Positions 5,064-12,420 are shown, counted from the stretch's first letter. The stretch: DNA of 64,000 bases from a virus (IMGVR_UViG_3300033066_000693:1-64000); one strand, 5' to 3'. Program-made: numbers and translations. The notes: a model not told the origin generated them from the letters alone.

Positions 5064-5092
5064 AACTGTTCGGAAAATCCTACGGAAATCTA
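5064..5092 (+). repeat. left subterminal inverted repeat of candidate IS607-like element (GAACTGTTCGG-n5-CCTACGGAAATCTA)
   Basis: reverse complement of 12390-12420 matches 25 of 29 positions; further GGAAATCTnC copies at 5244-5275. Confidence 0.4.
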
Positions 5093-5326
5093 CGATAACC
5101 TAGTAGATTTTTAGCCGTTTTCGCCTCCACCTGACCAACATTCTAAAGTTTCCTGACAGAAACTGCTGGAAGTGACAGCAGGTTACTGTTATACTACCTC
5201 CATCTAACCTGCCTTCCGTGCCCGTTGACTCTGGTTTGGCTTAACGGAAATCTGCGGGATAGTCGAAAAATCTGTAGAAAGAGGAAGGAATCTAGGAGCC
5301 TCTTACAGAAATAAGGAGAGTCAGGC

Positions 5327-5533
5327 ATGAAGCGAAGGAAACCAATGGTCGTAAGAGTTACTAAAACTGAGTTTGAATTGGACGACGGGAGAATTTACCC
5401 AATGCTGTTCGATCTCAAAGACGACGAAGTACCAACCGTAGACGAATTCCAGAAAATCTACGACCAATGGCATGACCTGTTCAGAAAGATGAAACTGTCA
5501 AGCCATGAGCAAACAACTGGTAAGCATAAGTAG
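5327..5533 (+). CDS. hypothetical small protein
   Basis: 68-aa ORF with RBS AAGGAGAG. Confidence 0.35.
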   Translation: MKRRKPMVVRVTKTEFELDDGRIYPMLFDLKDDEVPTVDEFQKIYDQWHDLFRKMKLSSHEQTTGKHK

Positions 5534-6170
5534 AGCCGCAGACCTGCTAGGAGTCTGCATTGATACGCTCAGAGAATGGGACAAGGCGGGGACTTTAGTG
5601 CCTGTCAAGACCAAGGGCAATCATCGTCGTTATCTCCTATCAGACATTGAGAAGATGCGGGGCGAGTATATCGAACAGAAGACTGGCACTCAGATACGAG
5701 TAGCAGTATACGCCCGAGTCTCTTCACATGAACAAAAGCAGAAGGGCGACCTTGAGCGTCAAGTGGGCCGAGTCTCCAAGTATTGCGCAGACAAAGGCTA
5801 CCACATCGTAGAGACGTTCGATGAAGTCGGCTCTGGTATGAATGAGGACAGGGCGAAGCTCAAAAGACTCTTCAAGTTGGTGGAAGAACGGAAGATTGAC
5901 AAAGTTGTGGTTGAGCATAAGGACCGCTTAGCTCGATTCATGGTCGGGTTTTTGCATGAGTTTTTCAAAAGCCATGACGTTGATATCGAGTGGATGAGCG
6001 AGATTCTGGGCAAGTCATACGAACAAGAACTTGTGGAGGACATTCTTTCACTTATGTCGTCGTTTTCTAACAAGATCTATGGCAAGAGGTCGGCAGAGAA
6101 CCGCAAGGCAAGGAAGCTGGCGAAACTAGCAGAGCAGGTGAAAGAGAAAGCTGTCACTACAGGATCTTAA
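5505..6170 (+). CDS. tnpA: IS607-family serine recombinase/transposase TnpA (N-terminal MerR-type HTH + resolvase catalytic domain)
   Basis: HTH LLGVCIDTLREWDKAGTL; resolvase motifs YARVSSHEQ and GSGMN..R. Confidence 0.8.
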   Translation: MSKQLVSISRAADLLGVCIDTLREWDKAGTLVPVKTKGNHRRYLLSDIEKMRGEYIEQKTGTQIRVAVYARVSSHEQKQKGDLERQVGRVSKYCADKGYHIVETFDEVGSGMNEDRAKLKRLFKLVEERKIDKVVVEHKDRLARFMVGFLHEFFKSHDVDIEWMSEILGKSYEQELVEDILSLMSSFSNKIYGKRSAENRKARKLAKLAEQVKEKAVTTGS

Positions 6171-6196
6171 CAGGTGCAACTGGAATATGCTACAAT
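6167..6196 (+). promoter_or_regulatory. sigma70-like promoter TTAACA-n18-TGcTACAAT
   Basis: upstream of the helicase gene, overlapping the tnpA stop. Confidence 0.3.
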
Positions 6197-6243
6197 GAAG
6201 TATCTCAAGGACGAGACTTCACGCTATAGGAAATACAGGCAGA

Positions 6244-10587: not shown

Positions 10588-10597
10588 GGAGTCGAGT

Positions 10598-11017
10598 ATG
10601 TTACCCGAAGACGATCATGATACAAAAGCATTAAAAGCATCTATGCTCATTGAAGAGTTTCTAAAAGACTGTCCATTGGCAAGTTATCTAAAATCAAGGG
10701 ATATTCAGTTTGTACATACTCATTGGAATTTAGAGTTGGGGTACGAAAGCAATACTGTATTCGTTTCATTTGAGCGGTTGCAGTCAAATGAAAAATCAGA
10801 TCTAACTCAACAGACGAACGAAATAGAATCCATCCTCCAAGACTACAATCCACGAAAAGTTCACTACAAAGGAGAGGACGGCTGGATATTTACTCTTCCG
10901 CCAAGGGACACTAAAAACCTGCATCCAGCAGAAACAGGATTCGTATTGAAGATGAAATCAATTGTTGGAGACGAAAACTTTACAGTAACAGAAGGAAAGC
11001 CTGCCAATGAGAACTAG
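10598..11017 (+). CDS. hypothetical protein (AT-rich segment)
   Basis: 139-aa ORF with RBS AAGGAG. Confidence 0.3.
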   Translation: MLPEDDHDTKALKASMLIEEFLKDCPLASYLKSRDIQFVHTHWNLELGYESNTVFVSFERLQSNEKSDLTQQTNEIESILQDYNPRKVHYKGEDGWIFTLPPRDTKNLHPAETGFVLKMKSIVGDENFTVTEGKPANEN

Positions 11018-11143
11018 CAAATGTCCAACCTGCAATCACAAACAACCCAGAAGACCCGTAACGTTTTGGCAGATAAGAACAAATGGTGCGATACTGAGTT
11101 ATCGCTGTCCAAAATGCAGAAACATAAGGCCATATAGCGAACA

Positions 11144-12322
11144 ATGAAGATACTGAAGGCATATAAGACCGAGATTGACCCGAACAACGTCCAGAGGACT
11201 ATGCTCCTCAAACACGCTGGTTCGGCTCGCTATGCCTTCAACTGGGGTCTAAACGAAAAGAAGAAAGCATTCGACGCTAAAACCAAGATACCGAATGCGA
11301 TGGAGCTTCACCGCCAACTCAATGCCCTCAAAAAGACCGACTTCCCTTGGATGTACGAAGTCTCCAAATGCTCACCGCAAGAAGCCCTGCGCAACCTTGA
11401 CAGAGCTTTCGATAACTTCTTCCGTCGCTGTAAAGCCAAGAAGTCAGGTACCCACAAAGGCAAAGTCGGCTTCCCGAAGTTCAAGTCTAAGAAAAAGGGC
11501 GTTGGTTCCTTTAGACTGACAGGCACGATAAAAGTTTTTCCACAAGCAGTCCAGTTGCCTCGCCTTGGCTCTATAAGGCTCAAGGAACGAGACTATCTCC
11601 CATTGGATGCCAAGATACTCTCAGCAACCATAAGCGAACACGCAGGGCGGTGGTTCGTTTCTATCCAAGTAGAAGAAACCATTGCTGATCCCAAAGCAAA
11701 ACCAGAATCTATTGTTGGCGTTGATTTAGGTATCAAGACTCTAGCGACCTGTTCAGATGGAACTACTTTCGAGAATCCCAAGGCTCTGCGCAGAAATCTC
11801 AAGAAGCTGAAAAGATTGTCCCGCTCTCTGCATAGGAAGCAGAAGGGCAGCAAGAATAGAAAGAAGGCAGCGAGGAAACTCGCAAAACTTCATTACCGTA
11901 TTGGTAACATCAGAAAAGACACGCTCCATAAGATGACAACTCAACTAACGAAAAGCAAGTCAGTCATTGGCATCGAGGATCTCAATGTGTCTGGTATGAT
12001 GAAGAATCATTCTCTAGCTCAAGCCATTTCGGATTTGGGTTTAGGAGAATGGAGACGACAACTTGAGTACAAGGCAGGACTCTATGGCTGCAAGATTGTG
12101 GTAGCTGATAGGTTCTTTCCGAGTAGCAAGATGTGTCATGTATGCGGGTGTTTGAACGAAAGCTTGGAGCTTTCGGACAGGTCGTGGACCTGCTCATGCG
12201 GGGCCATATTGGATCGAGACATGAACGCCGCAGTGAATCTAAGGAATAATGCGAAATTGGCGGTCAGTTCGACCGACAATCAAAACGCCTATGGAGGGAT
12301 TCTGCCTCTGGTTTCCTCGTAA
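11144..12322 (+). CDS. tnpB: TnpB (OrfB_IS605/IS607-family RuvC-like RNA-guided nuclease)
   Basis: split RuvC motifs (GVDLGIK, IEDLNV, DRDMNAAVN) and Zn finger CxxC-x17-CxC. Confidence 0.85.
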   Translation: MKILKAYKTEIDPNNVQRTMLLKHAGSARYAFNWGLNEKKKAFDAKTKIPNAMELHRQLNALKKTDFPWMYEVSKCSPQEALRNLDRAFDNFFRRCKAKKSGTHKGKVGFPKFKSKKKGVGSFRLTGTIKVFPQAVQLPRLGSIRLKERDYLPLDAKILSATISEHAGRWFVSIQVEETIADPKAKPESIVGVDLGIKTLATCSDGTTFENPKALRRNLKKLKRLSRSLHRKQKGSKNRKKAARKLAKLHYRIGNIRKDTLHKMTTQLTKSKSVIGIEDLNVSGMMKNHSLAQAISDLGLGEWRRQLEYKAGLYGCKIVVADRFFPSSKMCHVCGCLNESLELSDRSWTCSCGAILDRDMNAAVNLRNNAKLAVSSTDNQNAYGGILPLVSS

Positions 12323-12389
12323 GAGGGAAGTAAGCAGACCCGTTGAAGTAGGAATTGAACAGGAGATTTGTGTATGATTCTGTCACTCA

Positions 12390-12420
12390 TAGATTTCCGT
12401 AGGTTTCAAGGAACGGTTCG
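12390..12420 (+). repeat. right subterminal inverted repeat of candidate IS607-like element (TAGATTTCCGTAGG-n6-GGAACGGTTCG)
   Basis: reverse complement matches 5064-5092; lies 68 nt past the tnpB stop, in the expected omega/right-end RNA region. Confidence 0.4.

Follow-up and report, generated by a model that had tools for sequence, protein, structure and literature searches.

Gene content of the locus

The 64,000-nt stretch of viral DNA IMGVR_UViG_3300033066_000693:1-64000 (hereafter the window) contains, at positions 5058-12416, a unit of 7,359 bp that is very probably a single discrete IS607-family transposon with a restriction-modification-like cargo. We call this element W, and the loci and contigs compared with it carry L-numbers. 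Its genes are all co-oriented and tightly packed, and comprise a small open reading frame (ORF), orf68, followed by the transposase gene tnpA, four cargo genes, two further small ORFs and tnpB. An earlier note on this DNA, made from the sequence alone, had likewise described one IS607-family element with cargo placed between tnpA and tnpB, a reading that was borne out by a second locus, L046, which shares the unit with W in an unrelated context. All the genes listed in that note were found, and the one that it missed is orf68.

The tnpA gene (5505-6170, + strand) encodes an IS607-family serine transposase with an N-terminal MerR-type helix-turn-helix (HTH) and a C-terminal resolvase catalytic domain. 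Pfam matches cover residues 7-43 (MerR, 6e-9) and 66-204 (Resolvase, 3.5e-25), the protein scored 190.8 bits against the NCBIfam equivalog transpos_IS607 (cut-off 110), and the catalytic-serine motif YARVSS is intact. At the other end of the element, tnpB (11144-12322, + strand) encodes an RNA-guided nuclease of 392 amino acids (aa) in which the RuvC triad (D194, E278, D359) and the zinc-finger cysteines are intact. TnpB matched the Pfam families OrfB_IS605, Cas12f1-like_TNB and HTH_OrfB_IS605 and reached 311 bits with NCBIfam guided_TnpB (cut-off 100); with the IS607_TnpB "exception" model it reached 331 bits, just below the cut-off of 350. The Pfam and NCBIfam matches and the intact motifs therefore confirm the MerR-HTH serine-recombinase TnpA and the full TnpB reported previously. 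Among the comparison loci, the TnpA matches of L022, L024, L026 and L027 begin at residue 66, which corresponds to the catalytic domain without the MerR HTH, and an HTH-like piece is present in L022, 1.1 kb upstream of the TnpA match. These four loci may be interrupted or decaying copies.

The orf68 gene (5327-5533, + strand) overlaps the start of tnpA by 29 nt and encodes a conserved protein of 68 aa. We collected 30 TnpA relatives from viral contigs and mapped the proteins of the window onto them. A homolog of orf68 precedes tnpA in 23 of these 30 loci, and the gene belongs to the core gene set of the IS607 relatives. Homologs were found in one database (81 sequences) and in another (211 cluster representatives), none of them annotated, and they share the invariant core RV..EFEL.DGR...P...FQ..Y. 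Pfam, PHROG, NCBIfam and PADLOC gave no match. The AlphaFold2 model, with a predicted local distance difference test score of 81, consists of three short strands and one long helix; a structure search, PDB included, returned no meaningful match (best E 0.9). Neither an HTH nor a ribbon-helix-helix fold is apparent in it. In IS605 elements, a small Arc repressor overlaps tnpA and represses the transposon promoter (2026 preprint), and extending this analogy to orf68 is functional speculation. The protein is most likely a regulator or an accessory transposition factor, and our best guess is that it might regulate via a block of motifs located at 5244-5294, upstream of its gene.

Element ends and insertion junctions

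The two ends of W carry inverted-repeat arms of 33 nt at 5063-5095 and 12387-12419, with 26 of 33 positions complementary (79%) and an exact 14-mer core. A repeat search returned this pair as the longest inverted pair within 4500-13000. The 14-mer CCTACGGAAATCTA occurs exactly at 5079-5092 (+ strand) and at 12390-12403 (- strand), the right copy beginning 68 nt past the tnpB stop (12322). Allowing up to one mismatch revealed no further site in the window, that is, 2 observed against 0.02 expected, and none of 100 dinucleotide-preserving shuffles gave two matches. The arms lie 6 nt (left) and 0-3 nt (right) from the element termini. The earlier note had recognized this non-random repeat at the element ends and its 68-nt distance from tnpB, with positions about 1 nt off, and it had also pointed to additional motif copies on the left side, which we located at 5244 and 5264. 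Its view that such a repeat departs from IS607 did not hold: a subterminal imperfect repeat combined with direct motifs is the normal end structure of IS607, and the repeat is not novel because Chen et al. (2018; PMC6188088) give the same end architecture for this family.

The left side of W is bipartite. The 5-mer AAGGG at 5053-5057 (+ strand) flanks the element and represents the target motif and putative TnpB target-adjacent motif (TAM), with the crossover GG at 5056-5057. The left end (LE, 5058-5111, + strand) starts with TTGGTG and AACTGTTC, after which the motif occurs twice in tandem (GGAAAATCCTAC, 5072-5083; GGAAATCTAC, 5084-5093). A variable spacer follows (5112-5243, + strand), which has no nucleotide similarity to L046 and contains a hairpin, CTGCTG-n7-CAGCAG, at 5163-5181. 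The inner motif block upstream of orf68 (5244-5294, + strand) is composed of ACGGAAATCT, GAAAAATCT and GGAATCTA, with a third copy of ACGGAAATCT at 5244 and then GAAAAATCT at 5264. It is kept in L046 from W position 5248 and in part in L001, and it probably provides extra TnpA sites or an operator. A sigma-70 promoter scan gave fewer matches than shuffled sequences. On the right, the element terminates with the crossover dinucleotide GG at 12415-12416 (+ strand), and the similarity between W and L046 stops at 12417.

These ends are conserved throughout the family. A right end closing on ...AGATTTCCGTAGGTTTnnAGGAACGG is kept in 15-16 relatives with unrelated flanks after it, AGGAACGG is invariant across 15 aligned elements, and the right ends read AACGG in 16 of 16 elements. 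The two bases that follow the right end are TT in 11 of the 15 elements and TA, GC or CG in the others. On the left side, 21 distinct junctions conform to RRGGG/TT-(3-4 nt)-AACNGTT (the slash marks the junction here and below), after which an RRAAAYCT-type motif occurs in two tandem copies. G was found at -1 and -2 in all 21 junctions and at -3 in 20 of them, while -6 to -8 were random. The junctions of W read gagAAGGG/TTGGTGAACTGTT...GGAACGG/TTCGATG and those of L046, which also has AAGGG as its left flank, read acaAAGGG/TTGGAGAACTGTT...GGAACGG/TATTACA, both without target duplication. The tandem motif of the left end is also present in L001, L002, L018 and L046, and its variant shifts jointly at both ends, separating GGAAATCT lineages from AAAAATCT lineages.

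Two candidates were discarded during this survey. A "left end" of L003 at 5717 was a chance match to GGAAATCT, the true left end lying just upstream of its orf68. Targeting of tRNA genes, brought up by the T-loop-like appearance of some right flanks, was rejected after ARAGORN predicted no tRNA in 14 reconstructed empty joints. Near-perfect right-end termini were also observed in L104 (771-798) and L107 (2332-2359), where no tnpB was detected in the available sequence; these could be right ends standing alone or remnants that retain the guide RNA only.

The unit at unrelated sites

Two loci found via nuclease homologs, L046 (ENA contig k141_279601) and L047 (Logan contig), have the gene order of W: small ORF, tnpA, helicase, methylase A, methylase B, nuclease, two small ORFs and tnpB. 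Their identity to W is 89% for TnpA, 83% for TnpB and 73-81% for the cargo. These copies have DUF6980 upstream, HNH and NUDIX genes downstream and no ligase gene, a context unrelated to the neighborhood of W. Similarity between W and L046 by blastn is limited to W 5053-5111, 5248-10171 and 11143-12417; the nucleotide identity is about 74-80%, and W 5053-5111 is 86% identical to the L046 left end. Since W and L046 are at different sites, the lineage moved after acquiring its cargo.

Other relatives carry cargo at different internal positions between the same pair of left and right ends (LE and RE). L001 (7.33 kb) is organized as LE, nuclease, helicase, methylase A, methylase B, orf68, tnpA, DUF4238, tnpB and RE, with the whole cargo module sitting at the position equivalent to the W spacer (5112-5243). 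Its DUF4238 protein is encoded at 10648-11610, between tnpA and tnpB, and its tnpB (11577-12823) is split in two overlapping frames (301 and 123 aa) by a frameshift or an assembly error. L018 (7.50 kb) reads LE, orf68, tnpA, nuclease, nuclease-helicase fusion, methylase A, a 246-aa ORF, methylase B, a divergent tnpB and RE. L003 (4.59 kb) has a LAGLIDADG-like protein as cargo instead. Compact three-gene members measure 2.06-2.45 kb, and a compact member with an identical small ORF was found in at least five unrelated gene neighborhoods. Of the copies of this compact member, L109-L116 (orf58-tnpA-tnpB), one adjoins a P22-type portal gene, and tnpA or tnpB is split in L114 and L116; the spread of this member indicates recent transposition among phage genomes.

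The empty-site alleles in related genomes by which the earlier note proposed to check the element were found for none of W, L001, L018 and L046, in viral contigs scanned with a 25-mer of the W right flank and with the predicted joints of L001, L018 and L046, or in metagenome contigs scanned with the exact W joint. Ligase relatives in metagenome contigs had at best 68% identity, were not syntenic and showed no empty site. TnpB and ligase look-ups gave one contig and no second identical copy of W, and a megablast of 4000-14000 against GenBank phages returned no close relatives. In the Logan assembly of SRR32380195, one contig matches W 520-12418 without differences, and its neighbor begins at W 12389 (_14334 and _242890; L043 and L045). 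Their overlap equals k-1 (30 nt), which places a branch of the assembly graph exactly at the right boundary. As for the other successor of the right-end k-mer, candidates are a variant with a deletion or inversion, the tip of a circle junction and strain variation. No matching branch was seen at the left end, although a model with a circle or a second copy predicts one. The missing left branch, empty site and second copy count against the mobile-element reading, and with no empty site and no second identical copy, we can only infer the present-day activity of this copy.

The same observations could be accommodated by an immobile fossil in which TnpA is inactive and the guided TnpB has been kept only as a nuclease for homing into, or competing with, related phages without the insertion. 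Such a fossil would be consistent with one copy of the sequence, found in one context and with no empty allele; serine-recombinase TnpB elements also mobilise less often than IS605 (PNAS 2023), and the tnpB of L001 is split by a frameshift. This explanation is nevertheless unlikely, given that the catalytic motifs of TnpA and TnpB are intact, their domains full-length and both ends preserved, that W and L046 occupy different sites, that compact relatives are clearly mobile and that the graph branch coincides with the right end.

Predicted guide RNA at the right end

A candidate omegaRNA, or right-end element RNA (reRNA), scaffold was delimited at 12232-12416 (+ strand). It has a RAGATH-18-like core at 12288-12354, contains the right arm (12387-12416) and ends with AACGG. 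The core was detected in a permissive Rfam scan as a match to RAGATH-18 (RF03064) over the full model length, 1-71, with 25.6 bits and an E value of 0.22; the stop codon of tnpB lies within it, and the terminal GG follows 62 nt after its end. Two results count against assigning it to RAGATH-18 proper: the score falls short of the gathering score (44.9 bits), and none of eight relatives had a RAGATH-18 match at that score. At gathering scores, Rfam identified only tRNAs in W and the eight relatives, and no group I intron.

Support for the structure came from covariation. An Alifold analysis of 13 right-end regions gave 21 consensus pairs, 12 of them with compensatory changes. In this consensus, 96% of the cells were paired, compared with 78% in column shuffles (0 of 500 reached 96%) and with 37-64% when the partners were slid by 1-3 columns; the covariation score was 0.586 against 0.217. 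One helix joins AGATTTCC of the right arm (12391-12398) to GGAGATTT (12362-12369), and one of its pairs is G-C in six sequences and A-U in six. The earlier note had expected a guide RNA in the 3' flank of tnpB together with the right repeat, and the scaffold that ends at the right boundary agrees with this expectation.

As AGATTTCC covaries as a helix strand, the right arm is under two constraints, one from the TnpA-site motif in the DNA and one from the stem in the guide scaffold. The inverted repeat could then be imagined to result from the RNA constraint on the right, with the left arm matching it by chance and no recombinase sites involved. We consider this close to negligible. The left arm is outside any TnpB guide RNA, the same tandem motif recurs in W, L001, L002, L018 and L046, the variants change in step at both ends, the chance expectation is the 0.02 given above, and such motifs are TnpA sites in IS1535 (Chen et al., PMC6188088).

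The predicted 20-nt guide, TTCGATGTTGAAGCCAATAC (12417-12436, + strand), is the flanking DNA directly outside the element and is unique in the window. Its position was deduced from the scaffold end by analogy with the published architecture of IS607 TnpB (PMC11061315, PMC10690162), in which a RAGATH-18 core of the reRNA is followed by a conserved 3' flank of about 60 nt and then by the guide (Cell Res 2024, PMC11061315). The L046 flank differs at this position (TATTACAATG...). The Cell Res 2024 study reported GAGGG and AGGAG as TAMs, and a GAGGG left flank was present in four relatives of W. For another IS607-family element, Zedaveinyte et al. (PMC10690162) found that TGGG serves TnpA as target and TnpB as TAM, that the G at -3 is the most strictly read and that a scaffold ending in ...UCGG keeps the element's own end uncut. 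In W, the scaffold end AACGG and the left-flank AAGGG have a single difference, at -3, a pattern that would obey the published self-avoidance logic with a slightly different motif.

The cargo module

Four genes, arranged as an operon, make up the main cargo. The first (6244-7839, + strand) encodes a superfamily 2 (SF2) helicase-like ATPase with matches to ResIII and to the DNA helicases of phrog_16. A profile of six sequences (A7) retrieved the Type ISP enzymes LlaGI (2.9e-21) and LlaBIII (3.5e-21), followed by XPB (1e-13), and its best-scoring stretch is confined to the N-terminal RecA-like half (profile positions 8-226). Used as a single-protein query against viral contigs, the helicase gave no relatives, and its context was recovered via the nuclease homologs. 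The second gene (7836-9065, + strand) codes for methyltransferase part A, with NPPY at residue 138, an uncharacterised C-terminal half and matches to Eco57I (3.9e-9) and PADLOC MTase_II. The third (9065-9622, + strand) starts in an ATGA overlap with the stop of part A and codes for methyltransferase part B, which carries the S-adenosylmethionine motif I, DPACGNG, at residue 49 and matched N6_Mtase (positions 20-98) and phrog_21201. What had been noted as a second methyltransferase-like fragment is thus present, as the motif-I half of a split enzyme. The split and the order of the two halves are kept in every copy of the module. The fourth gene (9612-10208, + strand; mechanical ORF start at 9558) encodes a 198-aa Mrr-like PD-(D/E)xK nuclease, which has no Pfam match and whose assignment, also made previously, was confirmed by structure. 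Sequence searches of the PDB with the nuclease, the L018 nuclease-helicase fusion and methylase A gave no match.

Two small ORFs, orf130 (10219-10587) and orf139 (10598-11017), both on the + strand, complete the passenger genes. Their low GC content (0.38-0.39) is in line with the AT-rich ORFs described before, just as ResIII and Eco57I confirm the SF2 helicase and the NPPY methyltransferase. Neither had a family match in Pfam, PADLOC or PHROG. They lie in the stretch, 10171-11143, over which nucleotide similarity between W and L046 is lost; L046 has an ORF 35% identical to orf130 and no match for orf139.

Between them, the four main genes encode the set of domains known from Type ISP enzymes, divided among four polypeptides. 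Type ISP enzymes are single chains, and for this reason the module should not be filed as a member of that type, even though its products may function like Type ISP restriction-modification. Several observations weigh against that function: the methylase profile had only weak matches to solved structures (BrxX, 0.03), no target-recognition domain (TRD) was recognised in the module, and its stand-alone copies, described below, are common among phage DNA-metabolism genes, so that a role besides restriction is possible.

Origin of the cargo

The four-gene module was also found in the same order without tnpA, tnpB or IS607 ends on four large phage-like contigs, L048 (6597-10588), L051 (2703-6997), L052 (5901-10612) and L053 (1048-5759). 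L048 has a length of 265 kb, and L051 comes from the same sample as W. In some stand-alone copies, a further small ORF separates the two methylase halves, and orf130 and orf139 are absent from the stand-alone modules. Because the module exists independently in phages, it is a pre-existing cassette and not an invention of the transposon. The stand-alone copies in L048 and L051 are 55-58% (helicase) and 60-65% (nuclease) identical to W, compared with 38% and 44% for the transposon-borne copy of L001 and 28% and 27% for that of L018. In neighbor-joining trees of methylase A and of the helicase, stand-alone and transposon-borne copies interleave. These sequence comparisons suggest that IS607 relatives captured a phage cassette, or exchanged it, on at least two to three occasions; the trees are simple and without support values, which tells against a firm reading of repeated capture.

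The stand-alone modules also speak for a different history, in which W is not one mobile unit, and a resident phage cassette had the IS607 pieces (LE-orf68-tnpA and tnpB-RE) assembled around it by separate insertions, deletions or recombination, leaving the repeat as a remnant. Stand-alone copies being nearer to the W cargo than the copies of L001 and L018, and no empty site being found, would suit this history. We hold it to be very unlikely. L046 and L047 show the identical composite within an unrelated neighborhood, with similarity stopping exactly at both ends; L001 and L018 share the LE/RE pair; no inner RE or LE copies, expected of two independent insertions, flank the cargo; and the genes are packed in a single orientation. 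The earlier note had named two observations that, together, would speak against one element: a repeat no better than in shuffled sequence, and cargo without tnpA and tnpB at the same site in related genomes. The repeat proved significant against shuffles, and cargo without tnpA and tnpB was seen in other phages, not at this site.

The neighbors of the stand-alone modules include dCMP deaminase, T4-type RNA ligase, an endonuclease V-like Pyr_excise protein and metallophosphatases. It is possible, if doubtful, that W is a real IS607 transposon and that its cargo is not a restriction-modification system, being instead a phage DNA-metabolism or counter-defence module (for example, self-methylation to evade host restriction, together with a helicase-nuclease that degrades host DNA or serves recombination or repair). 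The location of stand-alone modules amid DNA and nucleotide metabolism genes of large phages would agree with this, as would the weak PADLOC matches of the cargo (PbeA 5e-6, MTase_II), the TRD that was not recognised and the marginal solved relatives of the methylase.

Genomic context

W is inserted 68 nt downstream of a gene for an NAD-dependent DNA ligase in a phage of about 258 kb; an exact match to orf68 was found on a contig of 257,887 bp. The window is phage-like, with homing and HNH endonucleases, an RNA ligase, a polymerase, a phage-type nicotinamide phosphoribosyltransferase and six tRNA genes. The element is part of a patch of selfish elements between the DNA ligase and RNA ligase genes. 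Downstream of the transposon are an HNH endonuclease (13673-14419) and a homing endonuclease (15968-17014), and the RNA-ligase ORF (14364-15260) runs into a Hint/intein-like segment, CLDGETLITT, and then stops. A tRNA with a CUA anticodon (24364-24438), labeled tRNA-Pyl by ARAGORN, would be an amber suppressor; ORFs near the element read normally in translation table 11, and recoding is not obvious. Four tRNA-Glu genes are located at 47905-48244 and a tRNA-Arg gene at 51054-51127. The nicotinamide phosphoribosyltransferase gene (56138-57712; phrog_448, E 1.6e-143) is an auxiliary NAD-salvage gene, carried by the same genome as the NAD-dependent ligase gene that adjoins the transposon.

Proposed mechanism

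By homology to IS607 elements that have been studied, TnpA would bind the RRAAAYCT motifs, which are arranged in tandem just inside both ends and form the subterminal inverted repeat. It would swap strands at GG, so that the element would be released as a circle of double-stranded DNA and would integrate behind RRGGG, leaving the target unduplicated. The predicted circle junction is GGTTTCAAGGAACGG/TTGGTGAACTGTTCGG (...GGAACGG/TTGGTGAAC...), and the predicted donor joint is GGTAGAGAAGGG/TTCGATGTTGAAGCC. TnpB would carry a guide RNA transcribed from the 3' end of tnpB through the right end, with the adjacent flank as the guide. It would cleave the empty site (AAGGG + TTCGATG...), whether that of the donor after excision or that of a co-infecting phage without the element. 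Homologous repair at the cut could then copy the whole element back, and the element's own right junction would escape cutting as it reads AACGG, not AAGGG.

A bolder version of this model is that the element is an RNA-guided "gene drive" for restriction-modification in phages, combining homing by TnpB into the empty ligase-proximal site of a related phage during co-infection with a cargo that kills unconverted, unmethylated competitors, and that orf68 is a new clade-specific regulator or recombination-directionality factor. We rate this version as unlikely. If it were true, the synergy would explain why the four-gene module was captured at least two to three times at different internal positions.

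Comparison with described systems

In its mobility functions, W resembles canonical IS607. The HTH-first serine transposase, the tnpB downstream on the same strand and, as judged from sequence, the subterminal imperfect repeat, the short phased direct motifs, the GG termini and the absence of target duplication are shared. For IS607, IS1535 and ISC1926, Chen et al. (2018) described no terminal inverted repeat, an imperfect subterminal repeat at unequal distances from the ends, short direct motifs that bind TnpA, GG termini and insertion at (G)GG without duplication (PMC6188088). Unlike canonical IS607, W measures 7.36 kb instead of about 2 kb, has tnpA and tnpB separated by about 4.8 kb of passenger genes, a third small gene before tnpA and the bipartite left end (outer end, variable spacer, inner motif block), and resides in a giant phage. 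An insertion sequence in the strict sense has tnpA and tnpB only and about 1.7-2.5 kb; with 7,359 bp and seven extra ORFs, W is therefore an IS607-derived transposon (a cargo-carrying insertion sequence) and not an insertion sequence.

Compared with the IS607-family TnpB of the CboIStron (PMC10690162), the G-rich target that equals the TAM and the -3 G that marks the empty site are alike (TGGG/TCGG there, AAGGG/AACGG here), as is a scaffold ending in CGG with the right flank as guide, so that a similar retention and homing logic may apply. The differences are that W has no group I intron detected with Rfam, the motif RRGGG rather than TGGG, and a cargo. The TnpB of ISFba1 (PMC11061315) has 387 aa, compared with 392 in W; its GAGGG TAM class matches the flank of the four W relatives, and in W the RAGATH-18-like core is likewise about 64 nt before the guide. 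However, RAGATH-18 is below threshold in W, and the W scaffold overlaps the tnpB stop, whereas the ISFba1 reRNA is independent of the coding sequence. Cargo-bearing serine-recombinase TnpB loci were grouped as "Ser-3" in the survey of Altae-Tran et al. (2023; PMC10691335). The LAGLIDADG-like cargo of L003 and the W helicase appear to fit that description. In the parts of the survey consulted, no four-gene Type ISP-like module, element ends or repeated capture are described, and the extra protein is called an HTH, while the orf68 model predicts three strands and a helix.

The closest counterparts of the cargo are the Type ISP enzymes LlaGI and LlaBIII (PDB 5ffj, 4xqk), which also have a Mrr-like PD-(D/E)xK nuclease and an SF2 ATPase, together with an N6-adenine (NPPY) methyltransferase (MTase) to which the split enzyme of W probably corresponds, and are the best solved relatives of the W nuclease fold and ATPase sequence. 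In L018, as in Type ISP, a second nuclease domain is fused N-terminally to the ATPase. W differs in having four polypeptides instead of one chain of about 1,500 aa, in the order ATPase, MTase-IV, MTase-I and nuclease; its methyltransferase is split and permuted, no TRD was recognised, and the module is phage- and transposon-borne. Lastly, like the free-standing Seg and Mob homing endonucleases of T-even phages (intronless homing, reviewed in PMC13565253), W contains a selfish nuclease between phage genes that could spread by cutting the allele without it, and its neighborhood also holds HNH and intein-type elements. Unlike these endonucleases, targeting by W would be RNA-guided and set by the presence or absence of the transposon, which has its own recombinase and discrete ends.

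Significance

IS607 and IS605 elements are usually regarded as minimal two-gene insertion sequences, in which cargo is mentioned as a rare curiosity. The transposition machinery, ends, target, TAM logic and guide RNA of W are as published for IS607, and on present evidence there is no new mechanism. Within the literature searched, the boundaries at base-pair resolution, the helicase within a four-gene Type ISP-like module, the independent existence of this module in phages, its recurrent capture at different internal positions and the conserved third gene appear to be new. Should the cargo prove to consist of ordinary phage DNA-metabolism genes, and the element prove inert, W would be one more well-annotated IS607 variant. 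A phage-borne Type ISP relative made of four polypeptides and an unannotated small protein that travels with IS607 tnpA are both worth testing. Together, W, L046 and their sister elements offer a defined system for studying how serine-transposase elements acquire passengers, and for asking whether TnpB-guided homing moves multi-kilobase cargo between co-infecting phages and whether defence-type modules cooperate with RNA-guided nucleases.

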